DNA of 64,000 nucleotides from an uncultured delta proteobacterium (GTDB lineage: Bacteria; Desulfobacterota; Desulfuromonadia; Geobacterales; DSM-12255), in contig CAWBBV010000004.1 of assembly GCA_963787125.1 (NCBI GenBank), forward strand, positions 64,001 to 128,000. Direction: 5' to 3'. Shown here in pieces: positions 4,524-24,878 of the stretch. The notes under the pieces are model-generated. The model made no database searches. It was not told the DNA's origin and was given only the letters and a program-made list of their open reading frames with translations. The position numbers were made by a program, and so were the translations under genes. The stretch's first letter is position 1. Each line of letters starts with the position of its first letter.

Positions 4524-4548
4524 AAATAAGTATGGTGTCCTCGGAATT
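4524..4548 (-). repeat. Repeat A copy (inverted)
   Basis: Reverse complement reads AATTCCGAGGACACCATACTTATTT. A divergent variant, AAATCAGGGACACGTCCACGTTTTT, lies at 4561-4585 (-). Confidence 0.85.
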
Positions 4549-4583
4549 GGGGCGTCCGCGAAAAACGTGGACGTGTCCCTGAT

Positions 4584-4910
4584 TTACCCCTTTGTTTCGT
4601 CGGAGCCAGGCAAAATCGGAGACAAATAGTCTACATCTACAACAATCGCTTCACCACGCCGTACTTGTTCCTTCACTTGTTGACTGATTGCGCGATTATC
4701 GCTCCTGATGAGTTCAACCAGACGGGTGATGCGTTTGGCCTCCGATTGACCGTCGTACGTGGCGCTCCACAAGACCATTTCAAACAGCAGCGGAATAAGA
4801 TCCAGCCCCTTATCGGTAAGTATATAGCTGTCTTTCCTGCCGTCTGCATGTCCCTCACGCACAAGAATACCCGCCTCAATAAGTTGACTCAGGCGTGAGG
4901 CCACAGAGCT
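4584..4910 (-). pseudogene. 5'-truncated HxlR-type winged-helix regulator
   Basis: ASRLSQLIEAGIL...DGRKDSYILTDKGLDLIPLLFEMVLWS is the C-terminal half of an HxlR protein; the N-terminus is replaced by repeat A at 4911. Confidence 0.75.
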
Positions 4911-4963
4911 AATTCCGGGGACACCATACTTAATTCAATAGGCCACCAATCGATCGTATTTTG
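4911..4963 (+). repeat. Repeat A plus degenerate repeat B
   Basis: AATTCCGGGGACACCATACTTAATT then CAATAGGCCACCAATCGATCGTATTTT. Confidence 0.85.
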
Positions 4964-4974
4964 GCTTGAGTCAA

Positions 4975-6483
4975 TTATGTTAACCCGAAAACGCTCTTTA
5001 TACACTCTTCCAGTTTCGCAACTTCTTCATCAGTGAGTTTATCGAACATTGACTTGCGCTTGCCCTGTGAAAGCCTGCCTCCATTCTCGCGACACATCCG
5101 CATAAAGAGGTCAATCATGCGATCCGGCATATCAATAATTTCCTGCATACAGGACTTAGCTTTTTCATAGTTGGTCAAAAGATCCAGCTCTGAAACTAAT
5201 TCTTTTTCTATGGTAGTTTCTATGAACCTGAACATATTTTCCGCTATTGCTGTCATATCAATGTATCGGTAATACAAAGCACTCTCATTCATCACCGTCA
5301 TTTCGCCTGCTTCAGTTAGTTGGTAGTCTATAAGGTGGAGAAGCGGTTTTGAAAACAGCTCTAAAGTTTGATCGTACTCCTTTATATTTTGGACAAGCGT
5401 AGCTGAAACGGGGAAAATTAATCCTTCTGGTGTAAATTTGGTGTTTGCCAAAATATTATGAATCAGAAAACGGTGTATTCTTCCGTTACCATCATCAAAG
5501 GGATGCATAAAAACAAAACCAAACGCAATGATTGTCGCTGCAATGACCGGATGAACTTTAGACACGGCCATCCTCTTGTGGCATTCAAACATTCCTTCCA
5601 TTAGTTCTGGCAGATCTTCCGGTTTAGGAGAAATAAAATGTACAATTTCCCTACCAAAACCGATTGATTGTCCAACGTAATTTTGATCTTTCCGGAATTC
5701 CTCATTGGCAAACCTACTGTCTACAATACTCTGCTGAAGATTGATGAGACCGTCTTTTGTAAAAAAGTCTGTTGTTTCGGCACTCTTCAGCAATTCCACA
5801 AAACGAGCCGCACGCTTTTGGTCGGGAGTTGTCCGCTCAATCTCAAATGATGATTTGGTCTCCTTTGTGAAAAGGTACGAGATGGCTCGCTGTAGTATAT
5901 CTACCGGATATTTGTCTATAACCTGTTTGGTTCGCTCCTGAAAATCGATCTCCATATATTTTTTCAAGAAATCAGTCTTTCGTATCAACGGACAAAAGCG
6001 TCGACTCCCAGGAAGATTGTTATTCACCTTTTGACGAGCTACCGGTATTTTTTTGGCAGCTACATAAAGGTCTTCATCTAGCAGATCTACATAATTGGCG
6101 ACCTTAACAGGCTCTAAATCAAGTGTTTTCCCTATGAGAAATTCATAAAGGAACCAGATCTGCCGCGCATACTTGCCGGTTGGTGTCTTGCGAACTATAT
6201 CTTCGATTTCGTTAGGGGGAGTTTGTTCGAAAACGGCATTTATGATCTCTAGATTCAAGCCTTCATGTTTCAGCGCAAAGGTTAAATGGCCACCCAATTC
6301 ATCACCAGGATGGTAAGCCAAAGGGTAAAATTCCTTCCGTCTGTGTCCCTCTATAACCGTCTGACGCCTTCCCTTTGTTTCCGTGACGTACGAAGTGACA
6401 TAATGGGGCAACACCTGCAGAGAATAACGCCGGATCAATTCCTCGTATCCAACTGAACTGCTTTTTGAAGTGTTTTTATACAT
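4975..6483 (-). CDS. Fic family protein
   Basis: HPFDDGNGRIHR Fic motif; GGAGGAGG RBS; visibly AT-rich relative to flanks. Confidence 0.93.
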   Translation of the reverse strand: MYKNTSKSSSVGYEELIRRYSLQVLPHYVTSYVTETKGRRQTVIEGHRRKEFYPLAYHPGDELGGHLTFALKHEGLNLEIINAVFEQTPPNEIEDIVRKTPTGKYARQIWFLYEFLIGKTLDLEPVKVANYVDLLDEDLYVAAKKIPVARQKVNNNLPGSRRFCPLIRKTDFLKKYMEIDFQERTKQVIDKYPVDILQRAISYLFTKETKSSFEIERTTPDQKRAARFVELLKSAETTDFFTKDGLINLQQSIVDSRFANEEFRKDQNYVGQSIGFGREIVHFISPKPEDLPELMEGMFECHKRMAVSKVHPVIAATIIAFGFVFMHPFDDGNGRIHRFLIHNILANTKFTPEGLIFPVSATLVQNIKEYDQTLELFSKPLLHLIDYQLTEAGEMTVMNESALYYRYIDMTAIAENMFRFIETTIEKELVSELDLLTNYEKAKSCMQEIIDMPDRMIDLFMRMCRENGGRLSQGKRKSMFDKLTDEEVAKLEECIKSVFGLT

Positions 6484-6985
6484 TTGCCTCCTCCATGTAT
6501 CTCACAAAATACTGCATGATTTTGTTTTCCGCAAGAGATTCATGTGGATTTATAAGTTTATAGCTTGCTATATGCAAATTTTCAGTTTTAGAACATTTCT
6601 AAATTCATTCGTTAAGTTCCCAAGAACCTAGACGCCTCTAAACTAATTGGATTCATATCTGGGGACCAAAAATTTCAATTAATCCAATTCGTTCTAAAGC
6701 TATTTTCTATTTTCTGCCTAATTCAGCTAGAATGCCTTTATCCGGGCGGGTTTAGCTAGATGCACCAAACTAATTGGCTTTCATCGCTTGGTGCAAAAAA
6801 ACAATTTGGATTGTAAAAAAACAAATTCAATTGATCCAATTCGTTCCAAATCTATTTTCAAATTTCTTTCTAACTGCCTAGAAGTGCCATTGTTCAAGAG
6901 TGTGGCTAGAGAGACGTTCTTATCTATTTTTCTATTGCAGAATTCCTGGAACATTCCCCACATTTCCTGACTCCTGCGCCGTCCG

Positions 6986-7468
6986 CTACTCCTCCTCCAT
7001 CCGCGGCCGTAGCGGAATGACCTTCGCCGGCCCCTCCTTCAGGAAGCGCGCCTGCCTCTCCGCCCAATCACAAAAGCCGGCCACGCCCGTCTCCCCGGTT
7101 TCGGCGAGTTCGCCGGTCCAGTCTGTGCAGAGATCGGCAAGCATGAGATTGGAAACCGCCCCTATCCAGGGCTGGTACACTACTTCCCCTTCTCCGCAGC
7201 CGGTATCCGCCTTCAATAACAGGTATTTTTTCTCCTCCGCAGTCGCGGCGAACAGCTCTTCGTCGTCATCGGCCATCTCCGTTACGCAGACGGCGTCTAC
7301 GCCGTATTCCCCAGGAGCGAAATTTCCTCGCCACGCATCAGCGGCAATGGCATCCGCCCCTGCAAGGGCAGTAAAGACCGCCTCAAACTCCTCTCCGGCC
7401 TCCACCTCGACGTCTGCGTACTCGAAAACCGGCCGGACCAGCCTGACTCTGAATCTCTTTTTCTCCAT
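6986..7468 (-). CDS. Hypothetical protein
   Basis: 160-aa ORF with GGAGAG RBS, directly downstream of relE. Confidence 0.7.
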   Translation of the reverse strand: MEKKRFRVRLVRPVFEYADVEVEAGEEFEAVFTALAGADAIAADAWRGNFAPGEYGVDAVCVTEMADDDEELFAATAEEKKYLLLKADTGCGEGEVVYQPWIGAVSNLMLADLCTDWTGELAETGETGVAGFCDWAERQARFLKEGPAKVIPLRPRMEEE

Positions 7469-7488
7469 TGCGTTCTCTCCTGTCAGGA

Positions 7489-7779
7489 TCACTCTTTCAA
7501 CCTGCCCTCTGCCGATCGGTAAACGGCAAAATTTTCCCGCTTGCCCACGGCCACTACAATGACAACGATGCGCTGGTCGTTAACCTGGTAGACAAGCCGG
7601 TAACCGGCGTTTCTCAGTTTAATTTTGTAACAGTCGGCCATACCGGAAAGCCTGGCTGATGCCACACGGGGCTTGGTCAACCGTTCAGCCAGCTTTTTCT
7701 TGAACTGCGCGCGGATTGCGCCGTCCAGTTTCTGCCATTCCTTGAGGGCGGTCTCTTTGAACTCAAGACTATAGGTCAT
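7489..7779 (-). CDS. RelE/StbE family toxin
   Basis: MTYSLEFKETALKEWQKLD...CYKIKLRNAGYRLVYQV...VAVGKRE. Confidence 0.93.
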   Translation of the reverse strand: MTYSLEFKETALKEWQKLDGAIRAQFKKKLAERLTKPRVASARLSGMADCYKIKLRNAGYRLVYQVNDQRIVVIVVAVGKRENFAVYRSAEGRLKE

Positions 7780-8014
7780 CGAGGGAAACCTTGACCGTCG
7801 GCTCCTGCTCTCTTTCCTTGACAAGTTGCGCCAGATTGTAGTCCTCGAATCTTTCCATCAGCGTTTCAAAAGCATCGGCCGGAATAAGGTAGGCGCTGGG
7901 CTTGTTATGATTGAGAATGGCGACCGGTGCCCCTTCTGCTTCATTGATGATGCGGGAGGGGTTTTTCTTCAGTTCGCTGATACTGACGGAAGCACGAGCA
8001 TAGATTCTATCCAT
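7769..8014 (-). CDS. Phd/YefM (StbD-like) antitoxin
   Basis: SISELKKNP...PVAILNHNKPSAYL...VSLDDL; overlaps the relE start. Confidence 0.93.
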   Translation of the reverse strand: MDRIYARASVSISELKKNPSRIINEAEGAPVAILNHNKPSAYLIPADAFETLMERFEDYNLAQLVKEREQEPTVKVSLDDL

Positions 8015-8174
8015 AAATAACCTCTTTTAAGACTTAATACATGGTACAAATATAGGTCATATTTGCCGCTGCTGCTAGAAACATTTCCTCCTGCGAAGCG
8101 TTTTTTTTACAGAAGGGTCATCTATGGGGTCGGGAAAACGCGGGACACTTTCCATATTTCTGTTTGGCCGGGCC

Positions 8175-8977
8175 TCAGCCTATCCAGTACCCTTCCGCAC
8201 GCTCCTGCAGCAACCCTTCGCGCACAAGCGTCCCGAGCAGTGCCAGCACCCGCTCCCCGTCCCGGCCACTCTGCCGGACGATGTCTTCTGCCGAAAGTCC
8301 CGGCGTCGCCAGCAGCAGTCTGAGGAGTTCCCCCCGATCTCCCGGTTCGAACCGCGGAAGGGGGACTGGCGGCTGTGCCCCTTGCTGCGGCGCGACGGGT
8401 TGGAGGCGGTCTTCTTCAGCATGGCGCCGTAGTCCATCAGGGCATTGTACCAGTCACGGATATTGTCCCGGTCCATGGTCTGCTCCACCAGGGGGAGGAT
8501 CTCGCGGTCGCTGACAGCGGTCCTGTCATGAAAGAGCAGGTGGATGAAGACGCTGCGAATGTTGGTCTCGATGAACGGGGTCGCCCGGCCGAAGGCAAAG
8601 GTAGCGATCGCGCCTGCCGTGTAGACGCCGATGCCGGGGAGGCGGACCAGATCGGCAACAGCGTCCGGCACGACCCCGCCATGCCGCGCCGTGATCTCTA
8701 CCGCCGCCCGCTGCAGCATCAGAGCGCGGCGGTTGTAGCCGAGTCCCTGCCAGAGAGCAAGCAGATCGGCGAGCGGTGCTGCCGCCAGCGTCTCCACGGT
8801 CGGGAAGCGGTCCAGAAAGGCGGCATATCTGGGCAGAACACGCTCCACCTGGGTCTGCTGGAGCATGACCTCGGAGACCATGATGCAGTAGGGGTCGGTG
8901 GTGCTCCGCCACGGCAGGGAGCGGGAATGTTCGCGGAAATAGCAGTAGATGAGCTGCTGGAACTGGTCTGTATTCAT
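8175..8977 (-). CDS. mutY: A/G-specific adenine glycosylase (short MutY-like, HhH-GPD), apparent -1 frameshift near 8335
   Basis: LPWRSTTDPY, VSEVMLQQTQV, WQGLGYNRRA, LPGIGVYTA. The C-terminus (LLRLLLATPG...EGYWIG*) continues in another frame after a G6 run. Confidence 0.85.
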
Positions 8978-9074
8978 GGGAGGTATTCTAGCAACGGTTC
9001 CATTCCCTGGACAAGGAGATTTACAGGCAGGCGGCCGCCTTTTCTCTTTCCAGGCTACATTATGTTTGAATTCA

Positions 9075-9103
9075 AGTACTGATTGTGACACAATTACAGT
9101 ACT
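9075..9103. promoter_or_regulatory. Palindromic operator candidate upstream of the Phd-RelE/YafQ pair
   Basis: AGTACTG-ATTGTG-A-CACAAT-TA-CAGTACT inverted repeat just upstream of the antitoxin. Confidence 0.6.
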
Positions 9104-9130
9104 CAATCAAGTACAGTAAGGAGTCAGGAA

Positions 9131-9394
9131 ATGAATACCATTCCCGCACAGGAACTGAAACGGCGCGGTATAGCAGCGGTTGACAGCTTGATCGCTCATG
9201 GTGACGTCCATGTCATCCGCAACAACCGGCCCGAGTATGTGGTGCTGTCCGAGGCGCGCTACCAGGAGCTGGTGGCCGAGGCGGAGGAGGCATATGTGGC
9301 CCGGGTGAAGGCGTCGCTGGAGGATGTGAAGGCCGGACGGGTAAAGCGGGGCAGTGCCGCTGACCTGATCAAAGAGCTTGGGCTCACGGACTAA
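9131..9394 (+). CDS. Phd/YefM family antitoxin
   Basis: MNTIPAQELKRRG...VHVIRNNRPEYVVLSE; precedes a toxin. Confidence 0.85.
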   Translation: MNTIPAQELKRRGIAAVDSLIAHGDVHVIRNNRPEYVVLSEARYQELVAEAEEAYVARVKASLEDVKAGRVKRGSAADLIKELGLTD

Positions 9395-9396
9395 GC

Positions 9397-9672
9397 ATGT
9401 ACGAACTTGTCTGGACTTCCGGTTTTACACGCGCCGCGAAAAAATTCGTTGATCAGCATCGCGAACTGCGCACCAAATTCGCCACCATCCTGAGCGACCT
9501 GGAGATCGACCCGTTCCAGCCCCACCTCAAATATCACCATCTGACCGGTAAACTGAAGGGTGTCCAGGCGGTGAGCATCACCCACAGCTATCGGATTATC
9601 CTGACCGTTATGATCACCGACAAGGAAATCATCCTCCTCGACATTAGCAGCCATGATGAGGTGTACCGGTAG
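9397..9672 (+). CDS. RelE/YafQ-like mRNA interferase toxin
   Basis: DPFQPHLKYHHLTGKLKG...SITHSYRII...DISSHDEVY. Confidence 0.88.
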   Translation: MYELVWTSGFTRAAKKFVDQHRELRTKFATILSDLEIDPFQPHLKYHHLTGKLKGVQAVSITHSYRIILTVMITDKEIILLDISSHDEVYR

Positions 9673-9697
9673 CAGGAAAAACAGGGAGGTTCAGGGG

Positions 9698-9722
9698 AAT
9701 TCTGGGAACATCCACACCTATT
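9698..9722 (+). repeat. Divergent repeat A-like copy
   Basis: AATTCTGGGAACATCCACACCTATT; similar divergent copies at 6941-6965, about 8137-8159 and about 23357-23378. Confidence 0.55.
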
Positions 9723-9792
9723 CCCGCTTGACGACACCGCCCTTCGAGAGTAATTTCCAAGCCACGAAAAGCCGCATAATGGGAGGTAGACG

Positions 9793-10452
9793 ATGCAAGT
9801 AATCGGTATCAGCGGCAGTCCCCGCACACAATGGAACACGGCAACTCTGGTGGCAAAAGCCCTGGAGGGGGCCGCTGCACAGGGGGCTGAGACGGAAATG
9901 GTCAACCTGTACGACCTTGATTTCAAGGGGTGCACGAGCTGCTTCGCCTGCAAGACCAGAGGTGGGAAGAGCTACGGCCGCTGCGCCATGAAGGACGGTC
10001 TGACGCCGGTGCTGGAAAGTATCGCCACGGCCGACGCCCTGGTGGTCGGCTCGCCGGTCTATTTCGGCTCGGTCACCGGCGAGACGCGCAGCTTCATGGA
10101 ACGGCTGCTGTTCCCCTATCTGACCTACACCGTCCCCTACGGCACCCTCTTTCCGCAGAAGCTGGCCACGGCCTTCATCTACACCATGAACGTCAATGAA
10201 GAGCGGAGCCGGGAGTTCGGCTACGAGTACTTCATCAAAGCGAACGAACGCTATGCCCAGATGCTGCTCGGCACCGCCGAGTCGCTCTGTGCTTTCGATA
10301 CCTGCCAGGTGGACGACTATGCAAAAGTGGTGATCGAGAGCTTCGATCCGGTGCACAAGGCGAAGCGGCGGGCCGAGGCGCTGCCGCTGGACTGCCAGCG
10401 GGCCTTCGATCTGGGGAGACGGCTGGCCGGGGCGGAAACCGTCGCGGCGTAG
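9793..10452 (+). CDS. Flavodoxin family / iron-sulfur flavoprotein (NADPH-dependent FMN reductase fold)
   Basis: GISGSPRTQWNT, CTSCFACK...C, GSPVYFG. Confidence 0.9.
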   Translation: MQVIGISGSPRTQWNTATLVAKALEGAAAQGAETEMVNLYDLDFKGCTSCFACKTRGGKSYGRCAMKDGLTPVLESIATADALVVGSPVYFGSVTGETRSFMERLLFPYLTYTVPYGTLFPQKLATAFIYTMNVNEERSREFGYEYFIKANERYAQMLLGTAESLCAFDTCQVDDYAKVVIESFDPVHKAKRRAEALPLDCQRAFDLGRRLAGAETVAA

Positions 10453-10843: not shown

Positions 10844-11251
10844 CTATTCAGCTGCATCTGCCGGAGCCAACCGTATTTTGGGTATCAAGGCAACGGGAAC
10901 TTCTGCCATCCGTTCCGGGCCGAGTCTGGTGAGCTCAGTACGAAATGTAGCCGCTTCGGAAACAAGAGCCGCCACTTCGATCCTTTGGCAGACGGGACAG
11001 ACTCGCTGCAGGTAGTCTATGCCACTGCTGAGCAGAGAAACCGACCCGCCGAAGTTGCCGTTACGCCAATGCAGAAGGGCAACGGCAATCTGCAGTATTC
11101 CCTGATAGAACCGGCGGATTTCATCTTCGGAGCCGATCCAGAGATCTTCGAGAGTTTCGTGGCATTCATACCAATCGCCTCGATTGAATTCGCCGTATGC
11201 CTGCAAAATCTCTCCTGAAGGAGAACTGGAACAATCAAGCTGCTTTTTCAT
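10844..11251 (-). CDS. DUF309 domain protein
   Basis: FNRGDWYECHETLEDLW...FYQGILQIAVALLHWRNGN; AAGGAG RBS. Confidence 0.88.
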   Translation of the reverse strand: MKKQLDCSSSPSGEILQAYGEFNRGDWYECHETLEDLWIGSEDEIRRFYQGILQIAVALLHWRNGNFGGSVSLLSSGIDYLQRVCPVCQRIEVAALVSEAATFRTELTRLGPERMAEVPVALIPKIRLAPADAAE

Positions 11252-11339
11252 AAAGGCTACTCCTTCTACTGACAATTCACACGAACAGCTTCATTTATAT
11301 TATACCGCTGCCAGGGGAAATAGCCCGTAATTCCACACG

Positions 11340-11389
11340 AATTTCAGGGACACCATACCTAATTCTAAAGGCGGCCAAGCGGCAGACTT
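11340..11389 (+). repeat. Repeat A+B composite
   Basis: AATTTCAGGGACACCATACCTAATT-CTAAAGGCGGCCAAGCGGCAGACTT. Confidence 0.9.
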
Positions 11390-11395
11390 GGTTGT

Positions 11396-11968
11396 TTACT
11401 CGCCGCCTTTTGGTTCAGGGCAGACGCAAGAATCGAAATCTTCATTCAAACACTCTCTGCAGACCCCACCACTGTCAAGCCCGGTACCACGGCGCGCCGC
11501 TTCTATTGCCGCGATGTCGATCTTTTTCATCTCCATCATCGCCTCGAACGCCCGTTTGGCAGCGGCAGGATCGGGATCGCTTATCGCTTCAGTCAGGGCG
11601 ATCGGCGTGATCTGCCACGACAGCCCCCATTTGTCCTGGCACCAGCCGCACTCACTCTCTGCTCCGCCGTTGCCAACGATGGCGTTCCAGTAGCGATCCG
11701 TTTCATCCTGATCGACGGTTGCAACCTGGAACGAGAATGCGCAGTTGTGCGTGAACTCTGGGCCGCCATTAAGGCCAAGGCAGGGAATGCCCATGACGGT
11801 AAACTCGACCGTCAACAGATCCCCTTGCTTCCCGGACGGGTAGTCCCCCGGTGCGAGAAGCAGTGCGCCGACAGATGAATCAGGAAAGGTTCTGGCGTAA
11901 AACCGCGCCGCCTCTTCGGCGTCGCGGTCGTACCAAAGGCATATTGTATTCTTTACAGGCGTTTTCAT
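11396..11968 (-). CDS. VOC family protein (PhnB / 3-demethylubiquinone-9 3-methyltransferase-like)
   Basis: ICLWYDRDAEEAARFY, LNGGP, CGWCQDKWGLSWQI, MMEMKKIDIA. Confidence 0.9.
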   Translation of the reverse strand: MKTPVKNTICLWYDRDAEEAARFYARTFPDSSVGALLLAPGDYPSGKQGDLLTVEFTVMGIPCLGLNGGPEFTHNCAFSFQVATVDQDETDRYWNAIVGNGGAESECGWCQDKWGLSWQITPIALTEAISDPDPAAAKRAFEAMMEMKKIDIAAIEAARRGTGLDSGGVCRECLNEDFDSCVCPEPKGGE

Positions 11969-12075
11969 GTCATTTCTCCTTTGCGATGCGCCGCTCTGAA
12001 AAGAAGTGCCGGTAGTGAGCGGTCAGTCTGCCGGGCCCGTAACGTTTTCTCTGTTACCTTCTGCTGTGGCCGGTG

Positions 12076-12447
12076 CTATTTCAATGAATGCAGACCTATC
12101 ATGTTTCCTTCGATATCAACCACCAGGGCGATGAAGCCGTATTCACCGATGGACCATTTCTCCCGCTGCATCCGGCCGCCAGCCGCGGTGACTCTGCCGG
12201 ACTCGACAGCGCAGTCTTCGCAACTGAAGTAGACTAGCGTGCTGTTGCCGCCTGATGAAACACCGTCCATTTTGACCAAGGCACCACCGGCACCCCAGCG
12301 CTCCATATCCATCGGAAAGCTCCATAATTCCACTTCCGGATTGGCCAAGCGCTCCAGCTTTACCTGGAAGACCGTTTCGTAGAAAGCTTTGGCCCGCTCA
12401 ATGTCCTGTACATATATTTCATACCAGCATACCGCGTTGTTTTTCAT
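12076..12447 (-). CDS. VOC family (glyoxalase-like) protein
   Basis: WYEIYVQDIERAKAFYE...DIEGNMIGLHS. Confidence 0.92.
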   Translation of the reverse strand: MKNNAVCWYEIYVQDIERAKAFYETVFQVKLERLANPEVELWSFPMDMERWGAGGALVKMDGVSSGGNSTLVYFSCEDCAVESGRVTAAGGRMQREKWSIGEYGFIALVVDIEGNMIGLHSLK

Positions 12448-12514
12448 GGCTCACTCCCTTCATGCTCCCGGAGAATTAAACTGATGCATCTATGGTAATT
12501 ATACACCTCGGGCG

Positions 12515-12555
12515 AGTTCCGGGGACAGCATACTTATCTCCTAACCGCCTTTTTT
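12515..12555 (+). repeat. Repeat A plus right half of B
   Basis: AGTTCCGGGGACAGCATACTTATCT-CCTAACCGCCTTTTTT. Confidence 0.8.
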
Positions 12556-17311: not shown

Positions 17312-17422
17312 GGAGACCTCGGTAACGTGTATTCAAAGGGCTCTGCTTCAATCGAAAAGCCCTCACTGTCAAGCATGAGAAAACGGGAGGCGACCCGCTT
17401 TAGCCGGTCGCCTCTGACAAGG

Positions 17423-17758
17423 CTATTTGCCGGTATCAGCCATTCTCTTTGTCTTGAGGCTCTTTAGGTAAAGAACCAGTGACTTCATTTCGGCTGATCC
17501 GGAATCGAGCTTTATCCCCTTGAGCGGACCGGCAATGCAGCGATTGATAATATCGGCCAGATCCTTTTCATCATATGTGGCTGCACCCTTGAGCTTGTCG
17601 GCGTCCATATGGCAGGTTGCGCAGCTCTTGCCGGATGTGCCGAGCTTATCATTGCTAAAAAGCAGTTTCCCCATTTCGATGGAGGGGACTTCGGCCCCTA
17701 TTACACTGCTGCACCAGACAATGCCTCCGCAAATAATCAACCCTGTCAGTTTTTTCAT
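17423..17758 (-). CDS. Monoheme c-type cytochrome
   Basis: Signal peptide plus GKSCATCH. Confidence 0.85.
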   Translation of the reverse strand: MKKLTGLIICGGIVWCSSVIGAEVPSIEMGKLLFSNDKLGTSGKSCATCHMDADKLKGAATYDEKDLADIINRCIAGPLKGIKLDSGSAEMKSLVLYLKSLKTKRMADTGK

Positions 17759-17858
17759 GTCTGTCTCCCTTTTGAATGTCTCTCTGAAGTCTAGATGACT
17801 TTGCAGTCAAGTCAATTGCGGCTCCGGGAGACGCAGCGTGCTGATGGATGAATATGGG

Positions 17859-17883
17859 CAAAGGCGGCCGATCGCCGCCTTTG
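17859..17883. repeat. Repeat B palindrome variant
   Basis: CAAAGGCGGCCGATCGCCGCCTTTG. Confidence 0.85.
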
Positions 17884-18214
17884 TTGTTTTGTCACGGATA
17901 AAAAACCTCTAGACCCATCTACCACTTCACAGTTTAGCATTGTCCTTGTCATGGCCATGATATAATCAGCTATACTTGTAAAAGATAACGAACTATGACG
18001 CCGCCATGAAAAAGCTCCACGTGGAGTTTGAACGGCGGGAGCCGGCGGTCTGCCACGTCTTTTTTGCTGCCGCTGGGCATCTCGGAAAAGAAAGCGCTGC
18101 TGATCCGCACGTGATCAGCCCCTCTGGTGAACGATATGGCTATAAATTCCTGTTCTGCAGAAAAGGTGAATGATCCGACTGAATAACCGGTCTTGATCAT
18201 GATAGGGAGCAAAA

Positions 18215-19291
18215 ATGTCTGCCCGACACGCAAAACTCGAACTTTTGGGGTGGAACCCATGGCTATCCGAAATAGCGGCGCTGCAGGGGCTACCTGTTGA
18301 GGCTATGGCGCGGGTGGCAACAGTTGACCGCGAGCAATTCGTACTTTTGAATGCTAACGGTGCGTTCCGGGCCAGGCTGTCCGGCAGCTACCTTCACCAC
18401 CGGCGGCGACCGGAAGAGTTCCCCTGTGTGGGGGATTGGGTGAGTGTGGAGAAAGGCGAAAATGACGACTTCGGTCTGATCCATGCTCTGATCGACCGCA
18501 GGACCAGCCTGCGCCGCAGGGCGATTGGCAGATCGGCTGAGGTACAGATGATCGCGGCCAATGTCGATTGCGTCATCATCGTGCAGTCGTGTCACTTCGA
18601 TTTCAATCTGAACCGCCTGGAACGCTATCTGGTAATGGTCGCCGAAGGGGGTGCTGAAGCGTATATCCTGCTTACCAAGACAGATCTGATCGGCCCTGAC
18701 GTTCTGGCTGACCAGCTTTCCCGGATTCATGCCGCTGGTATCATTGCGCCCGTGCTGACCTTGAGTAATGTCACCCGCAAAGGCGTTGACGAGTTGAAAC
18801 TCGTTTTGTTGCCCGGCAAAACCTACTGCTTAGTCGGTTCATCCGGAGTCGGCAAAAGTACGATCATCAACGAGCTGATCGGTCGGCAACAGCTTGAAAC
18901 AAAGGGAGTCAGTGCGAGCGGTGAGGGAAGGCACACGACCGTCCGCCGGGAGCTGATCGTTCTTGATAACGGTGCCATGGTTATTGATAATCCCGGGATG
19001 CGCGAATTCGGCATTTCTGCTGCGGAGGAAGGACTCAACGGGGGCTTCAGCGACATCACGAGCATTGCCTCCCGCTGCCGTTACCGGGATTGCACCCATA
19101 CGGATGAACCGGACTGTGCCGTACTCAGCGCTTTGGGGGCTGGAGGCATAAATCAGGCACATTATGAAAACTACCTAAAATTGAAGGGAGAGTCTGACTT
19201 CTACCGGTTGTCTCATGCAGAAAAGAGAAAGAAGGATCGCGATTTCGGCAAATTTATTAAATCGGCGAAGAAAGACCTGGTACGAGAATAA
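18215..19291 (+). CDS. rsgA: Ribosome small subunit-dependent GTPase A
   Basis: VGDWV, TKTDL, GSSGVGKST, GRHTT, DNPG, CRYRDCTHTDEPDC Zn site. Confidence 0.95.
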   Translation: MSARHAKLELLGWNPWLSEIAALQGLPVEAMARVATVDREQFVLLNANGAFRARLSGSYLHHRRRPEEFPCVGDWVSVEKGENDDFGLIHALIDRRTSLRRRAIGRSAEVQMIAANVDCVIIVQSCHFDFNLNRLERYLVMVAEGGAEAYILLTKTDLIGPDVLADQLSRIHAAGIIAPVLTLSNVTRKGVDELKLVLLPGKTYCLVGSSGVGKSTIINELIGRQQLETKGVSASGEGRHTTVRRELIVLDNGAMVIDNPGMREFGISAAEEGLNGGFSDITSIASRCRYRDCTHTDEPDCAVLSALGAGGINQAHYENYLKLKGESDFYRLSHAEKRKKDRDFGKFIKSAKKDLVRE

Positions 19292-19435: not shown

Positions 19436-19732
19436 TCAGTTTACTTCCAGATAGGGGTGAGTAGTAATGCGGCAATCTTCCTTGCGACCGGTCCGGGCAA
19501 TGGCGCCAATTGCCTCAACGATTCTGCTGACCGATTCATCGGTCGCAATGATCTCCAGCTTGACCTTCTCGACGATGTTTGCCATGAACGTGGCGCCGCG
19601 AAACATCATCACCTGTCCTTTCTGGTGGCACTTGATCGTGCTCTCCATGAAGTTCTCGATACCCATATTCTCAAGGGCGCTTCGTACCTCGTGCATCTTG
19701 AACTGATCGATAACGGCTTCAATCTGCTGCAT
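19436..19732 (-). CDS. Divergent P-II family protein
   Basis: IEAVIDQFKMHEVRSAL...FRGATF...EKVKLEII...IVEAIGAIARTG aligns with the GlnB/GlnK layout; GGAGG RBS. Confidence 0.82.
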   Translation of the reverse strand: MQQIEAVIDQFKMHEVRSALENMGIENFMESTIKCHQKGQVMMFRGATFMANIVEKVKLEIIATDESVSRIVEAIGAIARTGRKEDCRITTHPYLEVN

Positions 19733-19811: not shown

Positions 19812-19992
19812 AGAGCGCATAAAATAAATTGTTTGTAATTACGGAGAATTAGCTGCAAGAAGGCGACGCAGCGGGGATGACCGTGTGCCGGAAACTTGTG
19901 CTTCGGGGCGTCGGTCTGTCTAGTAAACAGTCAGTATGCTGCGCCGGCGAAATTATGAGGGGCGAACTCGGCGGCCACCATCCATGATTCAT

Positions 19993-20017
19993 AAGGTCGC
20001 CAATCGGCCGCCATTTT
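19993..20017 (+). repeat. Degenerate repeat B
   Basis: AAGGTCGCCAATCGGCCGCCATTTT. Confidence 0.75.
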
Positions 20018-20085
20018 AGCTCTTGTTGCCGACCGCCGCAATGGTGGTATGCTTACAACCGAAAACCAATAAAAGGAGACACGCC

Positions 20086-20508
20086 ATGTCAACATTGAAA
20101 GAGCAGATAGCCGCTATCATGGCCCCGTTGCAGCTCTCGGCAGTAGCCACCATCGCCGCCGGGAAACCGTGGGTCCGCTATGTGATGACGGTCGGCGGGA
20201 ACGACCTGAACGTCCGTTTCGCGACCTATGCGGGATCCCGCAAGGTTGCGCAGATAGCCGCCAACCCTGAGGTGCATGTGACGCTGGGAGTGAACGATCC
20301 GGCCACCATGACCCCGTACCTGCAGATCCAGGGACTGGCTCGCTTCTCCACTGAAGCGGCGGAGCGCCACGGGTTCTGGAGCGGGATGCTGGCCAACTAT
20401 TTCAGCGGGCCGGATGATCCGAACTACGGTGTGGTGATCGTGACCCCCTACCGAATCGAGCTGGCGAAGGCGGGCGTGCCGGTGCCGGAGGTCTGGACGG
20501 CGGGCTAG
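20086..20508 (+). CDS. Pyridoxamine 5'-phosphate oxidase-like / general stress FMN-binding protein
   Basis: KPWVRYV, SRKVAQIAANPEV, YFSGPDDPNY; AAGGAG RBS. Confidence 0.85.
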   Translation: MSTLKEQIAAIMAPLQLSAVATIAAGKPWVRYVMTVGGNDLNVRFATYAGSRKVAQIAANPEVHVTLGVNDPATMTPYLQIQGLARFSTEAAERHGFWSGMLANYFSGPDDPNYGVVIVTPYRIELAKAGVPVPEVWTAG

Positions 20509-20518
20509 AATCTGCGGT

Positions 20519-20568
20519 GATCCGGGGGCAGTTATTTAATTCAAAAGGCGGCCAAGCGGCCGCCTTTG
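20519..20568 (+). repeat. Repeat A+B composite
   Basis: GATCCGGGGGCAGTTATTTAATT-CAAAAGGCGGCCAAGCGGCCGCCTTTG. Confidence 0.9.
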
Positions 20569-20585
20569 TCGTTGTACGAAAGGGC

Positions 20586-21191
20586 TTACCGGCTCGCCCC
20601 GATCAGCCGCACGAAATCATCATAGGCGGCGAAACCGGTTAACCGCTTTCCGTCGCAGAGATGGGTGGGGACTGCGGTGATGCGCAGCTCCATGGCCAGC
20701 TGCCAATCGGCATCAACCGCTGCGGCATAGCTCCGCTCCAGCAGCACGGTCCGCGCCTCATCCGGGGACAGCCCGGCAACTGCGGCGATCCGGACCAACT
20801 CATCGACCAGGGCGATGTTGACCCCTTCGACGAAATATGCCCTGTAGACCGCATGGCGGAACTGTTCCCCCCGACCCTGCTCCTCCGCCCATTTCCCCAG
20901 TTCCTGGGCGAACCGGCTGTTGTAGGTACGGCTCCGTTCGACCAACGGCAGGTCCTCTGCCGCTGCTGTCTGCTGCAGCCGGGCCTGCATGTCGCGGATC
21001 ATTGCCTCCCGGCCGGCAAAGAGATCGGCAAGCTCCCTCCCCTCGGTTGGAGTCTCCGGGTGGAGCGGGAAAACTCTCCAGAGTAGCTGGACATTGTATT
21101 CCTTCTGGAGGCGATCGGTACGCACGGTACCGAGGTAGCACCAGGGTCAGATGTAATCGAAAAAGACCTCTACCACAGATGTGCTGTTCAT
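20586..21191 (-). CDS. DsbA/FrnE family oxidoreductase, selenoprotein candidate (UPWC)
   Basis: ATG 21191 with GGAGGAGG RBS gives MNSTSVVEVFFDYI-TGA-PWCYLG in frame with the 179-aa ORF; AVPT cis-Pro motif; hairpin just 3' of the TGA. Confidence 0.87.
21115..21133 (-). promoter_or_regulatory. SECIS-like hairpin
   Basis: TCGGTAC-CGTGC-GTACCGA, a perfect 7-bp stem beginning 13 nt after the in-frame TGA (21147-21149). Confidence 0.65.
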
Positions 21192-21214
21192 GGTGTCCTC
21201 CTCCCGGCAGTTTC

Positions 21215-21889
21215 TTAGAGCAGCCTCAATACCGCCTGCGCCGCCGGTTCCGATGAAGCGGGGTTCTGGCCGGTGATGAGATTACCGTCACTGATGACAT
21301 GGGACTGCCAGTCAGCCCCTTTGGAATATTTACCGCCGGTCTTGCGTAGTTCGTCCTCAACCAGGAACGGCACAATTGCAGTCAGACCGACCGCTGCTTC
21401 TTCGGTGTTTGAAAAGCCGGTGACTCCTTTTCCATTGACCAGCTGAGTACCATCTGCAGCCCGGGCATGGCGCAACACCCCGGGGGCATGACAAACCGCT
21501 GCAACCGGTTTCCCTTTGGCATACATGGTCTCGATCAGGGCGATGGAATCCCGGTCCTCTGCCAAATCCCACAAAGGCCCATGGCCGCCGGGATAAAAGA
21601 GCGCGTCATATTCATCCGCTATAACTGTCTTCAACGGTACGGTATGCTCCAGAATCGCCTGCGCTTCAGCGTCGTTGTTGAAACGCTCGGTGGCTGTTGT
21701 CTGGAAATCCTTTTCAGCACTCTTAGGGTCCAACGGCGGTTGTCCTCCTTTGGGCGAAGCCAGAGTGATCGTGGCTCCCGCATCCTTGAAGACATAGTAG
21801 GGGGCGGCGAACTCTTCCAGCCAGAAACCGGTCTTCTTTCCGGTTTTGCCAAGCTCATCGTGTGATGTCAGCACCATCAGTATCTTCAA
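21215..21889 (-). CDS. DJ-1/PfpI (Hsp31-like, class I glutamine amidotransferase fold) protein
   Basis: TGFWLEEFAAPY, PGGHGPLWDL, AVCHAP, ITGQNPASS; TTG start with GAGGAG RBS. Confidence 0.93.
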   Translation of the reverse strand: MKILMVLTSHDELGKTGKKTGFWLEEFAAPYYVFKDAGATITLASPKGGQPPLDPKSAEKDFQTTATERFNNDAEAQAILEHTVPLKTVIADEYDALFYPGGHGPLWDLAEDRDSIALIETMYAKGKPVAAVCHAPGVLRHARAADGTQLVNGKGVTGFSNTEEAAVGLTAIVPFLVEDELRKTGGKYSKGADWQSHVISDGNLITGQNPASSEPAAQAVLRLL

Positions 21890-22020
21890 GATCGGATCTC
21901 CTCGCGTGTGATGTCTCCGACTGCTCCGGCTTATGCCTGTCGGTTGATATATTGTACCTCATTTTGATTGAGTCACCAGATCGGGGCTAAAAATTGGAAG
22001 GGTCGTGACGGGGAGATCCT

Positions 22021-22060
22021 GGAACAGCAAAGGCGGCTGATTGGCCTCCTTTGCTGTTTC
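22021..22060 (-). repeat. Repeat B palindrome, inverted orientation
   Basis: Reverse complement GAAACAGCAAAGGAGGCCAATCAGCCGCCTTTGCTGTTCC. Confidence 0.85.
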
Positions 22061-22124: not shown

Positions 22125-23171
22125 CTACTCCCGTACCCAGTGGCAGGTGTACCCTCCCGGGTTCTTCACCAGGTAGTCCTGATGATGCTCTTCAGCCCGC
22201 CACCAGGGACCGGCCGGGACGATCTCGGTGACGATCGGCCGCTTCCACTTGCCGCTGGCATCCACCTCGGCCTTGACCTTTTGGGCGATCCGCTGCTGCT
22301 CTGCGTCATGGTAGAAAATGGCGCTCCGATAGCTGGAGCCCGTATCGTTCCCCTGGCGGTTCAGGGTGGTCGGATCGTGCATCCGGAAGAAGAAGCGAAG
22401 CAGGGCCTCAAAGCTGGTCCTGGTCGGATCGAATTCGATCCGCACCGCTTCGGCATGCCCCTCATGGTTACCATAGGTGGCGTTCGCCACCTTCCCGCCG
22501 GTATAGCCCACCTCCGTGGCGATCACCCCCGGCTGCTGGCGCAACAGATCCTCCATCCCCCAGAAACAGCCGCCGGCCAGGGTTGCGAACTGCTGCGCCG
22601 CTGCTGCCGAGGCCTTCCGGCCGAAGAGGGGGAGCCAGGCGCCGTAGCCGGCCTTCTCCAGGTCATCCACCGGGATGAAGCGGAGCGAAGCGGAGTTGAT
22701 GCAGTAGCGTAGCCCCCCCTTGTCCCGCGGCCCGTCGGTGAAGATGTGCCCCAGATGGGAGTCGGCCTCGGCCGAGCGGACCTCGGTCCGGACCATGCCG
22801 AAGTTGCTGTCCTTGTTCTCCTTCACGTGGTCCGGGGCGACCGGCCTGGTAAAGCTGGGCCAACCGGTGCCGGACTCAAACTTGTCCAGGGAGGAGAAGA
22901 GCGGCTCGCCGCTGACAATGTCCACGTAGAGCCCTTCGCGATGATTGTTCCAGTATTCGTTGTCGAACGGCGGCTCGGTCCCCGCCTTCCGGGTGACGTT
23001 GTACTGCAGCGGCGTCAGGCGCTTTTGCAGCTCTTCGTCAGCATATTTTTTCCCTGTCATGGTCGTCTCCTTTCCGGCAACCTGGTCCACCACGCGGAGA
23101 GGACGAACCATCACCGCCAGCACCAGAAGTGCCGTCATAATTCCTAATACCGTCAATATTTTCCTTTTCAT
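22125..23171 (-). CDS. Bifunctional methionine sulfoxide reductase MsrB-MsrA with N-terminal signal/anchor
   Basis: [24 protein letters not shown] (MsrB) then [21 protein letters not shown] (MsrA). Confidence 0.95.
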
Positions 23172-23420
23172 GCTGGTGCCTCGCTGCCCGTTTCATTCTG
23201 CGTGGAGCAATTGAATCCCGCTTTGTATCCAGGCGTCACGGCTCCGTTCCCATTTCACCCCAACCGCCGGGATAAATTAAGCGCCTACATTTTTAGTATA
23301 ACATACCAATTAACTCCTGAGGCAAGAATATGGCAGTATCTACCTTTGTAATTTTATCCAGGGAACGCCCATATTTTCACTTGTAACATCTCAGGCTTTA
23401 CTGGAACAGCTTACTGATTA

Positions 23421-23450
23421 CAAAAGGGAGCCAATCGGCCGCCTTTGCTG
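23421..23450 (+). repeat. Degenerate repeat B
   Basis: CAAAAGGGAGCCAATCGGCCGCCTTTGCTG. Confidence 0.8.
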
Positions 23451-23555
23451 TATAGTAGTTAGCACCTGGATGACGTAGCTGTCTGACGCTGATATTCGAC
23501 CGACCGGTCATGACGAACTGTGCTGGGTACAAGATTCAGCGCGAGGAAAGGTTAC

Positions 23556-24437
23556 ATGGGAATAGCTAAACATCCTTCAGTAGTTACCATGCCTGAAACC
23601 GCCAGACCGTACCCGTCCCTCCTTGTTTTCCTGTGCGGGCGGTTCCCGGCCATTCCCCGGGAGATCTGGGCGCAAAGAATTGCCGCGGGAAAAGTCCTGG
23701 ACGAGCATGGCCAGCGACTGACGCAGGAGACTGAATACGCCCCTTTGCGGCGTATTTTTTATTTCCGCGAGGTTGTTTGTGAACCGCACATCCCTTTTGC
23801 CGAGAAAATCCTCTTTCTCGATGATGAGATTCTGGTCGCCTGCAAACCCCATTTCCTTCCGGTGACCCCGGGTGGACGCTATGTTGACGAATGTCTGTTG
23901 AACCGGTTGCGCAGCAGTACAGGAATTGAAGATCTGGTGCCGCTGCACCGTATAGATCGCGGCACAGCCGGCCTGGTTCTCTTCTCGGTCAATAAAAAGA
24001 GCAGGGGGCGCTACGCCGGACTCTTCCTGAACAGGCTGATTGAAAAGACCTATCAGGCAGTGGCGGCATGTCAGCCTCTGCAGGAAACAGCCTCATGGCA
24101 GGTGGAGACAAGAATAGAGCGGGGCGAACCGGGGTTTCTGATGAAGACGGCATCCGGCAGGGTCAATGCCAGTTCTTCCATCAAGCTGGTGGAAGTCAGG
24201 GGAGAACTGGCCCGCTTTACCCTGCGGCCGCACACCGGCAAAACCCATCAGCTGCGGATTCACATGAGCGGCATCGGCTTTGCGATACTAAATGACAGCT
24301 ACTATCCAAAGCTGCTGGCCGAAAGCGATGATAATTTTGCCGCACCGCTCCAGCTGCTGGCGCAAAGGCTCTGTTTCAAGGACCCTCTGAGCGGCAGGAG
24401 CAGAGAGTTCAGCTCCGGCCGCGAGCTGTTATGGTGA
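23556..24437 (+). CDS. RluA family pseudouridine synthase
   Basis: KPHFLPVTPGG, LHRIDRGTAGL, TGKTHQLRIHM. Confidence 0.93.
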   Translation: MGIAKHPSVVTMPETARPYPSLLVFLCGRFPAIPREIWAQRIAAGKVLDEHGQRLTQETEYAPLRRIFYFREVVCEPHIPFAEKILFLDDEILVACKPHFLPVTPGGRYVDECLLNRLRSSTGIEDLVPLHRIDRGTAGLVLFSVNKKSRGRYAGLFLNRLIEKTYQAVAACQPLQETASWQVETRIERGEPGFLMKTASGRVNASSSIKLVEVRGELARFTLRPHTGKTHQLRIHMSGIGFAILNDSYYPKLLAESDDNFAAPLQLLAQRLCFKDPLSGRSREFSSGRELLW

Positions 24438-24473
24438 TGATTTCACTGATATATGCAGGACATTTTTTCACTA

Positions 24474-24507
24474 CAAAAGGCAACCGATCGGCCGCCTTTG
24501 CTGTTTC
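24474..24507 (+). repeat. Degenerate repeat B
   Basis: CAAAAGGCAACCGATCGGCCGCCTTTGCTGTTTC. Confidence 0.8.
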
Positions 24508-24531
24508 TGCCTGCCACCCGCATGACTTCCC

Positions 24532-24798
24532 ATGCCCCCGCGGGAATGTGCCTTTCTCGCGGCCATGCTTCCAGGGCCACAAAAGGTTTACAATCCGTAC
24601 CGGCATCTGGATCGGGTGCTGAAGCGCTCCGACACCATCCTGGGACTGTTGCGCCAGAAGGGCGTACTGAACGAGGCGGAGTACCGGCTGGCCCTGGCGG
24701 AGACACCCAATATCACTGGGATGCAGCGGAAAGTGGACCAAAGCTTCACGGCCAAGGCAAGGCGATTCTTCAAGGATCTGTTCGGGTTTTTCCGGTGA
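24532..24798 (+). pseudogene. C-terminal fragment of a peptidoglycan transglycosylase (MtgA/PBP GT51-like)
   Basis: ECAFLAAMLPGPQKVYNPY...RSDTILGLLRQKGVLNEAEY resembles the GT51 motif-5 tail; the catalytic N-terminal part is absent. Confidence 0.7.
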
Positions 24799-24828
24799 GC
24801 AGGCAAGTTATTGGGTTCAGGAGGGTGG

Positions 24829-24878
24829 ACTTCAGGGGACAATACTATAATTCAAAAGGCAACAAACGGTGACTCTCT
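24829..24878 (+). repeat. Repeat A+B composite (last copy seen in the array)
   Basis: ACTTCAGGGGACAATACTATAATT-CAAAAGGCAACAAACGGTGACTCTC. Confidence 0.8.

Follow-up and report, generated by a model that had tools for sequence, protein, structure and literature searches.

To our knowledge, integrons are the only well-understood platforms on which bacterial chromosomes store and reshuffle single-gene units. Here we ask what has arranged a row of short gene units in an uncultured delta proteobacterium of the Geobacterales, where the units are separated by copies of a common repeat and no integrase gene is at hand. The window analyzed is a stretch of 64,000 nucleotides (nt) of this genome (positions 64,001 to 128,000 of contig CAWBBV010000004.1, assembly GCA_963787125.1; G000:C4:64001-128000 in our numbering), the source genome, G000, having 4.2 Mb in 30 contigs. 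The repeat is an element of about 60 nt, in which a box of 25 nt (box A) is followed by a GC hairpin (B) with a stem of 10-11 bp and a 4-nt loop, and then by a T-rich tail, GCTGTTT. From 3.6 to 24.9 kb, the window holds one representative of a hypervariable array of units that is found across the lineage and starts directly behind the terminator of dapL, the gene for LL-diaminopimelate aminotransferase. The array is real, order-wide and anchored at dapL, its units are exchangeable, and its junction element is of a new kind.

The consensus of the element, derived from 172 elements of 24 genomes, is GAATTCCGGGGACACCATACTTAATTC AAAAGGCGGCC AATC GGCCGCCTTT GCTGTTTC. When A+B is folded as single-stranded DNA, a short perfect hairpin of 10 bp is all that forms, and box A, which is non-palindromic, is left unpaired. 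The centre of B is variable (4-6 nt; AATC, AAGC, GATC, GATT and others), and B is flanked by T-rich stretches on both strands, resembling a two-way intrinsic terminator. In the hairpin, 94.7% of the cells are paired, with just 7 compensatory cells among 101 distinct sequences. Since compensatory changes are so few and B-like cores are rare elsewhere, B is conserved in sequence and not in structure alone.

That the repeats seen in the initial annotation of this DNA are real and non-random is evident from the counts. Searches of the window for the 25-mer of box A and for palindrome B, each with up to 3 mismatches, gave 3 and 8 matches, respectively, against none expected from shuffles, and a repeat search found two families within 4910-24505, one of 48 nt (12 copies) and one of 59 nt (7 copies). 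In the 4.2-Mb genome, scanned by nhmmer with a profile built from 12 copies, all hits that contain both box A and B (12/12) fall within C4:68906-88510 (window 4906-24510). One further hit in the array region, on the opposite strand, is palindrome only, as are all hits elsewhere. The B core (3 mismatches or fewer) occurs at 11 loci inside the array and at 6 in the remaining 4.2 Mb. A covariance model of the element, R1, matched the window between 4904 and 24515 and nowhere across 25-64 kb (E <= 0.001), in agreement with the earlier remark that no copies of B were seen in 25-57 kb.

Candidate copies of box A were graded by local alignment score against percentiles of a null. Those at 6941 (score 10, about the 99.9th percentile), 8137 (score 9, 99th), 9698, 15691, 20519 and 24829 (score 16) are at or above the 99th percentile; with box A taken by itself, the copies at 10455 and 23357 (score 8) are borderline. 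The first list of solo and partial boxes thus stands at 6941, 8137 and 9698, is borderline at 23357, and has to be shortened by the A-like copy at 4561, whose local score of 7 (about the 90th percentile) lacks significance. Two other readings had to be revised: the copy at 19993, taken for B alone, is A+B with its box A at 19965, and the copy at 22021, taken to be inverted, is plus-oriented, with a degenerate box A and a right flank that aligns with plus-oriented copies in two relatives.

No Rfam family matched the element (a lone sub-threshold match was to sraL, E 0.14), nor did a plasmid collection. The one match in viral contigs is a hairpin without box A, which we read as an ordinary terminator; B-only look-alikes are seen as putative terminators elsewhere, this viral contig included. 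The GC skew of contig C4 stays within +/-0.05 without a trend, so that leading- and lagging-strand placement of the elements are not distinguishable. As a separate observation, a promoter-like stretch of about 45 nt is common to the DNA behind two junction elements (window 14368-14440 and 17897-17960; AAAACCTCT[T/A]GACCC..CTACCACTT..CAGTTTA), and may be a second conserved module that opens some units.

The array is not peculiar to this genome. R1 matched 36 of 41 related genomes, and the matches were always clustered within a genome; by family, 21/22 genomes of f1, 0/4 of f2, 7/7 of f3, 1/1 of f4 and 6/6 of f5 had them. A genome carries about 4-20 copies of the element, all essentially at one locus. 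The clustering that the initial annotation had supposed therefore holds: in the source genome and its relatives, the repeats are not scattered genome-wide but confined to the array. Wherever the proximal flank of an array was captured (7/7), dapL is upstream on the same strand. In five complete genomes, the R1 hits (E <= 0.01) that lie downstream of dapL on the same strand are 15/16, 3/3, 4/4, 3/3 and 3/4, at distances of 0.5-45 kb. Similarity between genomes stops right past the dapL terminator, which places the start of the variable region there. The copies that bear box A are uniformly oriented in 30 of 31 array segments. Finally, a scan for the exact pattern in one genome per species across the genome collection returned 82 loci, nearly all in records named Geobacter, Geobacteraceae, Geobacterales, Desulfuromonadaceae, Desulfuromonadales, Geotalea, Pelotalea, Trichlorobacter or 'delta proteobacterium'; short contigs binned to other phyla held a small number of them. 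Isolates with the pattern include Geotalea toluenoxydans JCM 15764, Trichlorobacter thiogenes ATCC BAA-34 and Pelotalea chapellei DSM 13688.

A unit has between one and a few genes, which may lie on either strand, and an element closes its dapL-distal side. The gene content of the arrays varies between genomes. Several units (FMN reductase, VOC, DinB, P-II, DsbA, MsrBA, RluA and Phd/YafQ) recur in other arrays in a new order and with new neighbors, keeping the same orientation relative to the array. Units were seen solely in records of Geobacterales type, and their nucleotide identity between genomes (76-93%) is of the same order as that of dapL (88-92%). Some collinearity is kept in several genomes, involving the FMN-reductase, VOC, glyoxalase and DinB genes. 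As anticipated when the dapL-to-GGDEF interval was proposed for comparison, gene order is not conserved among relatives and synteny breaks at the repeats.

How closely the breaks follow the elements can be seen from their flanks. In a first set of cross-genome element pairs, the left flank alone was shared in 39, the right alone in 42, and both in 1. With 167 elements of 24 genomes, whose flanks fall into 22 left and 22 right clusters, the corresponding numbers were 77, 141 and 3. Sequences on the two sides of a repeat centre were adjacent in another genome in 11 of 426 cases, vs. 364 of 622 at random control points (array positions at least 300 nt from any repeat). Of 663 ends of BLAST blocks, 229 are no farther than 100 bp from a repeat that was detected, vs. 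10% expected. The FMN-reductase unit illustrates the point: its 15 copies from genomes and metagenomes have at least nine distinct right-hand neighbors.

Metagenomes add arrangements of the same kind. At metagenome loci that encode homologues of the FMN reductase, A+B follows the gene in 9 of 11 cases at 90% identity or above, vs. 1 of 28 at 84% or below (39 of the 80 loci returned were examined; 4 truncated by the end of a contig and 37 of at most 63% identity were excluded). Sequencing runs, with small shares (0.19 or less), supplied assembled contigs; those of four runs were matched at 90% likeness, and the organisms are relatives and not this strain. These contigs connect one repeat of the window to another (examples are 9033>9716, 10476>20543, 10456>15715 and 13673>14212), and they also diverge, stacked, at 20536 and 20567/8, on either edge of a single hairpin. 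The joints are alternative arrangements in relatives, not activity in this strain, and some may reflect other organisms or misleading assembly at repeats.

The exchange point can be located further by asking which part of the element travels with which unit. Variants of box A go with the unit on the left: AGTTTACC stands behind the FMN reductase in four genomes, and in a fifth plus metagenome loci as well. Variants of the tail accompany the right-hand unit; a shortened form, TTTTGTTT, precedes the short VOC gene in three genomes. By column, excess identity is linked to the left flank from -28 to -8 (box A) and to the right flank from +26 onward (tail). Since box A is linked to the left-hand unit and the tail to the right-hand one, exchange must occur in or at hairpin B. 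The loop and arms of the hairpin show no clear linkage to either side, and the resolution is about the hairpin plus a few bases of A and of the tail. In sum, the elements mark the points where units reassort between genomes, with the exchange inside or at hairpin B. The earlier view of the repeats as recombination or capture junctions stands in so far as they are the recombination junctions of a cassette-like, non-integron array; the native G+C of the units and their Geobacterales-type records give no sign of capture from outside.

The features of the array and its flanks are as follows (coordinates of the window, strand, description and basis).

2365..3598 (+): dapL (LL-diaminopimelate aminotransferase), the proximal anchor; Pfam Aminotran_1_2; 88-92% nucleotide identity to relatives
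3604..3632 (+): dapL terminator hairpin; downstream sequences of 7 genomes compared
3691..3966 and within 3860..4258 (+): BrnT toxin (PF04365, E 8.5e-23) and BrnA antitoxin (PF14384, E 6.3e-17)
4524..4548 (-): solo inverted box A with 2 mismatches; box A search
4584..4904 (-): fragment of an HxlR-type regulator, 5'-truncated at the repeat; Pfam HxlR, profile positions 37-88 only
4911..4968 (+): junction element, box A perfect, hairpin B degenerate; box A search, nhmmer, R1
4975..6483 (-): unit of a Fic/DOC-domain protein; Pfam
6941..6966 (+): solo box A, degenerate; local score 10
6986..8014 (-): 168-residue open reading frame of unknown function (82% amino acid identity in G006), then ParE toxin/Phd antitoxin; Pfam, relatives
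8137..8165 (+): solo box A, degenerate; local score 9
8180..9106 (-): unit of an HhH-GPD base-excision glycosylase; Pfam
9131..9672 (+): Phd/YafQ toxin-antitoxin unit; Pfam; in arrays of 6 other genomes; bypassed by the metagenome joint 9033>9716
9698..10452 (+): FMN-reductase unit with A-like box, TTGACG...TAATTT promoter-like leader and gene (9793-10452); Pfam, box A score
10455..10512 (+): junction element with box A variant AGTTTACC; repeat search, nhmmer
10844..11275 (-): DUF309 unit; Pfam
11340..11397 (+): junction element; box A search, nhmmer, R1
11396..12447 (-): VOC-family (3-dmu-9_3-mt) gene and glyoxalase-family gene, apart from each other in relatives; Pfam
12512..12539 (+): box A, then half a hairpin only; repeat family D18
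12651..14179 (+): DinB-like, SRPBCC and second SRPBCC genes, separate units in relatives; Pfam; the joint 13673>14212 omits the third gene
14190..14247 (+): junction element; repeat search, nhmmer, R1
14320..14367 (+): junction element, hairpin and degenerate box A; palindrome B search, nhmmer, R1
14441..15712 (+): unit of an MFS transporter; Pfam MFS_4
15689..15747 (+): junction element; palindrome B search, nhmmer, R1
15862..17758: 163-residue open reading frame of unknown function (+), flavodoxin-like quinone reductase (-), c-type cytochrome (-); Pfam
17851..17896 (+): junction element, hairpin only; nhmmer, R1
18215..19291 (+): RsgA-like GTPase; Pfam; a 35%-identical paralogue elsewhere in the genome
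19336..19383 (+): junction element, hairpin only; palindrome B search, nhmmer, R1
19436..19732 (-): unit of a P-II-like protein; Pfam; in arrays of G028, G031 and G004
19964..20022 (+): junction element; repeat search, nhmmer, R1
20023..20508 (+): unit of a PNPOx-like flavoprotein; Pfam
20516..20574 (+): junction element, hairpin B perfect, metagenome contigs diverging at both edges; palindrome B search, nhmmer
20586..21889 (-): DsbA-like and DJ-1/PfpI genes; Pfam
22011..22058 (+): junction element, an extended palindrome standing in for its degenerate box A; repeat search, R1, relatives
22125..23171 (-): unit of an MsrB-MsrA fusion; Pfam; repeat-bounded in G004 and G006 as well
23395..23453 (+): junction element; palindrome B search, nhmmer, R1
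23520..24437 (+): unit of an RluA-type pseudouridine synthase; Pfam
24458..24505 (+): junction element, hairpin and weak box A; palindrome B search, nhmmer, R1
24829..24878 (+): last A+B copy, decayed; box A local score 16
24896..26965 (-): gene on the distal side of the array in this genome, GAF-GGDEF protein; Pfam

The array genes occupy both strands and nearly all are single-copy in the genome. Repeats lie 0-12 bp from the stop codons of FMN_red, PNPOx, SRPBCC2, VOC, Fic and DsbA, close to the 0-11 bp first reported. A gene truncated at a repeat was also rightly noted: the HxlR fragment abuts the 4911 repeat with its 5'-end, and a full-length counterpart of 134 residues was found in G031. 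Within the glycosylase unit, 9028-9052 is a half-hairpin remnant (repeat family D10), and contig joints fall at 9030 and 9033. The GAF-GGDEF gene was not found next to the arrays of the relatives fetched. Compared with its G031 counterpart, dapL contains one extra nucleotide near 2651, which leaves two overlapping reading frames (2365-2652 and 2597-3598); either this is an assembly error or dapL is a pseudogene of the lysine pathway here. A reading frame of 140 residues at 4064-4486 (-) was rejected as antisense to brnA. Beyond the array, the window has at least nine in-frame copies of a 108-nt coding repeat at 44450-45770, presumably a Sel1/TPR-like repeat protein, a 79-nt sequence present twice with 91% identity, 11.4 kb apart (40698-40776 and 52059-52137), and a 12-nt unit, GGGCTAGAGTCG, in about five perfect tandem copies (58526-58586).

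The array has an integron-like architecture, yet it is not an integron. No IntI gene was found in the window, as was noted from the start. Elsewhere in the genome, two exceed the TIGR02249 cut-off: C4:161318-162673, on the same contig and 73 kb from the array (model match at C4:161732), and C23:106715-107650. Neither has an attC-like array beside it. Among the 41 genomes, cross-tabulated by hand, IntI exceeds the cut-off in 22; 17 of the 36 genomes with arrays lack it, and 3 of the 5 without arrays have it. This pattern of presence and absence indicates that IntI is unrelated to the arrays. At E <= 1e-30 it is absent from 4 of 5 array genomes examined, and it was never near an array, including in the five complete genomes.

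The element itself points the same way. Two relatives, G024 and G032, have true integrons elsewhere, with repeat ends of CCTAAC...GTTGGG/GTTAGG beside an IntI gene (about 480 bits): 8 repeats of about 60 nt in G024 (L165:3110-10313) and 9-10 of about 131 nt in G032 (L167:4137-11216). These served as controls for core motifs, which were used in a relaxed form (YYYAAC on the left, GTTRRR on the right), the strict RYYYAAC/GTTRRRY having missed real attC sites. Both relaxed motifs are present in 6 of 8 real attC sites of G024 and 6 of 9 of G032, vs. 0 of 172 A+B elements; the initial claim that the repeats lack attC ends is thus upheld. A real attC of G024 also folds end to end with bulges, and A+B does not. 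Some features of the integrases and integrons may be recorded here. Both IntI genes of the source genome have an N-terminal extension of about 130 residues (451-residue open reading frame; the C4 copy is L008:11318-12673), a long form that is common in relatives (open frames of 457-513 residues). Upstream of each there are 4-6 iterons of about 20 nt (GTTTCTAT..TAAAC). In the integrons of G024 and G032, the array lies upstream of intI in the same orientation.

If IntI does not serve the array, which protein might? Box A provides a lead. Its core has 8 matches in the genome, at two places plus one stray, and a perfect box A outside the array is found only as an inverted pair that brackets a gene for 219 residues (G000:C12:217641-218297). 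The product matches Pfam Y1_Tnp (E 1.8e-13); its top NCBIfam match is NF047646, the REP-associated tyrosine transposase (RAYT; REP, repetitive extragenic palindrome). The translation has HVH and Y-x-x-x-N-P, which we take to be the catalytic motifs of a Y1 protein. Orthologues with 68-81% identity are present in 11 other genomes, and the resulting 12 loci have inverted box A on both sides in 7 cases, on a single side in 3 and not at all in 2. At loci of Y1 paralogues with 47-51% identity, box A was absent (3/3), and it is rare overall, with 0-10 copies in each of five other genomes. The earlier suggestion of an HUH (RAYT) enzyme gains from the inverted copies of box A that bracket a RAYT-like Y1 gene in 7 genomes, the source genome among them, and loses from the persistence of arrays where the gene is missing.

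Other Y1_Tnp proteins and A-like boxes were encountered. A Y1_Tnp protein of 284-292 residues with a C-terminal helix-turn-helix is encoded between dapL and the first junction element in G028 (284 residues; C1:195885-196736), and the same type occurs twice on the array contig of G001 (C90:4687-5535 and 8984-9769). The window has yet another type, of 329 residues, at 60760-61749 (-); it is one of five paralogues (325-343 residues) and box A was not seen alongside. An A-like box also lies just upstream of a TTGAC(G/T)...TAATTT pair at window 9698-9792, at G000:C12:218298-218362 and in L170-L178; these promoter-adjacent boxes are those of the FMN-reductase leader and of the DNA upstream of the RAYT-like gene. 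Box A may thus also be a regulatory or protein-binding site.

We prefer the view that units would be excised and reinserted, or swapped, between hairpins by an enzyme encoded in trans, which would recognize the DNA hairpin in single-stranded DNA. The best candidate would be the single-copy RAYT-like Y1 (HUH) transposase bracketed by inverted box A. The hairpin with its T-rich sides could double as a two-way terminator insulating adjacent units, and the toxin-antitoxin pairs might stabilize the array. Where the enzyme has been lost, arrays would remain and would alter only more slowly, through homology-driven exchange and deletion. The need for a protein partner is argued most strongly by an unpaired box A and a near-invariant hairpin that are kept over four families, terminators in this genome being rarely B-like. 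We give an even chance to enzyme-driven recombination of units at the hairpins, and assign roughly half of that weight to the Y1 protein as the enzyme. The wider proposal, that Geobacterales have a second, integrase-free cassette system behind dapL run by a single-strand hairpin enzyme (Y1 or an unknown protein), is accordingly more tentative, and we regard it as possible rather than probable.

Several findings weigh against an enzyme of this kind, and against Y1 in particular. The NF047646 score of the Y1 protein, 66.4 bits, is below the family cut-off of 80. The flanks of its gene carry box A without hairpin B, and the box A copies in arrays are degenerate and do not track the lineage-specific variants of those flanks. 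G031 (complete in one contig; 13-16 elements) and G014 (100% complete; 10 elements) have neither Y1_Tnp (E <= 0.001) nor IntI (E <= 1e-30), and the Y1 orthologue was not found in G003 and G006, both with large arrays. No tyrosine recombinase gene is in or beside the arrays of five genomes. As for the exchange itself, 65% of the ends of BLAST blocks lie farther than 100 bp from any repeat detected, and some units abut without one (e.g., VOC|glyoxalase and DinB|SRPBCC). Unit G+C (0.55) is native, not below the genome value. The assembled contigs of relatives, at 90% likeness, gave no direct sign of activity. Exchange confined to a near-identical hairpin of 26 nt is, moreover, what short-homology recombination would predict as well.

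This last point leads to the explanation that competes most seriously with the one we favor: an old array of accessory genes with two-way terminators, thinned and reshuffled by short-homology recombination between hairpins of about 26 nt, without a dedicated enzyme. The routes would be deletion, excision of circles and their re-entry, and exchange with the DNA of relatives. Such recombination would account for an exchange zone that coincides with the longest identical stretch, for the persistence of arrays in genomes with neither Y1 nor IntI, for unit divergence comparable to that of dapL, for the native G+C and for the collinearity kept in several genomes. Recombination between direct repeats also preserves orientation, as seen. 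It leaves unexplained, however, why an unpaired box A and an exact hairpin sequence are conserved across four families, why the family is confined to one locus, and why a Y1 transposase gene has this very box A on its flanks. In addition, 97% of the repeats break synteny despite offering 26 nt at about 90% identity, which is about the lower limit for RecA-dependent exchange. We consider this account a real possibility, if a doubtful one. A host tyrosine recombinase, XerC/XerD or another conserved one, could instead use B as a double-stranded core site with arms of about 11 bp. B is indeed a perfect palindrome with a variable centre of 4-6 nt, and the two best Phage_integrase matches are present in 5/5 genomes examined, including those without IntI and Y1. 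But the variation of that centre from copy to copy is itself a difficulty, since differing centres hinder complete exchange by tyrosine recombinases, and nothing ties Xer to the B site. Orientation is uniform, moreover, though the palindrome has none, so direction must derive from box A or the tail. We find this route improbable.

Less probable still, and to about the same degree, are two further explanations. One is a cluster of attC sites lacking integrases (CALIN), an integrase-less integron array served in trans by an IntI from elsewhere in the genome. The cassette-like layout, the toxin-antitoxin units and the elements abutting stop codons would all suit it, and the genome does have two IntI genes, one of them on the contig of the array. 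It is opposed by the lack of core motifs in all 172 elements, a fold unlike that of attC, and IntI genes that are unrelated to the arrays, never near them and, in the source genome, without a neighboring attC-like array of their own. The other is a plain family of REP sequences or terminators in an ordinary conserved neighborhood, with no part in rearrangement. The T-flanked hairpin does resemble a two-way intrinsic terminator, and B-only look-alikes are seen as putative terminators elsewhere. The elements are, however, confined to one locus where gene order is unconserved and synteny breaks at the repeats, and homologues of the FMN reductase with 84% identity or less almost never carry the element (1/28), in contrast to those with 90% or more (9/11). 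The clustering, synteny and flank tests already contradict a plain terminator family.

If enzyme-driven exchange at the hairpins holds, the array would be the functional counterpart of an integron, with a recombinase and a type of site of its own. Integron logic with another site, no integrase and an order-wide anchor would show that the architecture arose more than once. It would also give a testable function to domesticated transposases of the RAYT type, about whose role in the cell there is still debate. In this array and in that of G031, most units serve redox reactions, detoxification and repair (FMN and quinone reductases, VOC/glyoxalase, DinB, SRPBCC, DsbA, DJ-1, MsrBA and KatG), so that strains of these anaerobes may differ in stress defence through this locus. 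Even without a dedicated enzyme, the element is a precise marker of recombination hot spots for comparative genomics and a candidate portable two-way terminator.

The cassette array is apparently undescribed so far. Genome papers on Geobacter and Pelobacter report many 'multicopy nucleotide sequences', including a palindrome-containing family common to several species (PMC2700814, PMC2996986, PMC3543383); their main texts, as far as consulted, have no cassette array at dapL, and the element may be listed in their supplements. A group IIC-attC intron is listed for G. sulfurreducens (PMC3001079), and IntegronFinder detected complete integrons in more than 50% of the strains of one Geobacteraceae subclade (PMC11434368). 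Our literature search returned no description of such an array or of its HUH/RAYT link in the parts of the sources seen, and nothing relevant in those of PMC3184786 and PMC3403914.

Among known systems, the REP/RAYT pairs (REPtrons, REPINs) share with the present case a single-copy Y1 gene bracketed by an inverted short sequence that recurs near GC hairpins. Here, however, about 4-20 copies are at one locus, rather than hundreds being dispersed, and they separate exchangeable gene units; box A is non-palindromic, the gene flanks are without the hairpin and the protein is below the NCBIfam cut-off. The IS200/IS605 elements move by a single-strand 'peel and paste' mechanism, and by analogy a Y1 protein reading a hairpin and nearby bases on one strand would fit the uniform orientation and an exchange point at a hairpin. 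They differ in that here one hairpin element stands between units with no left and right ends, the cargo is ordinary genes and usually there is no transposase inside. The Xer-dependent dif modules of Acinetobacter plasmids are similar in that modules, often of toxin-antitoxin or stress genes, lie between short recombination sites and reassort with the recombinase unlinked. Those sites, for XerC/XerD, are of 28 bp, alternate in orientation and are found on plasmids, whereas here orientation is uniform (30/31 segments), the sites are chromosomal GC hairpins with a 4-nt loop, and plasmids gave no match.

Finally, the sedentary chromosomal integrons and CALINs come closest in organization. They, too, have units facing one way, a structured repeat abutting the stop codon, toxin-antitoxin cargo, reassortment between genomes that preserves orientation, and a fixed chromosomal site. 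The array behind dapL differs in having no adjacent IntI, attC core sites or attC fold; about half of its genes are on the opposite strand, and many of its units are multi-genic with promoters of their own. Its element is conserved across an order instead of being species-specific, and real integrons coexist with it in the same genomes.

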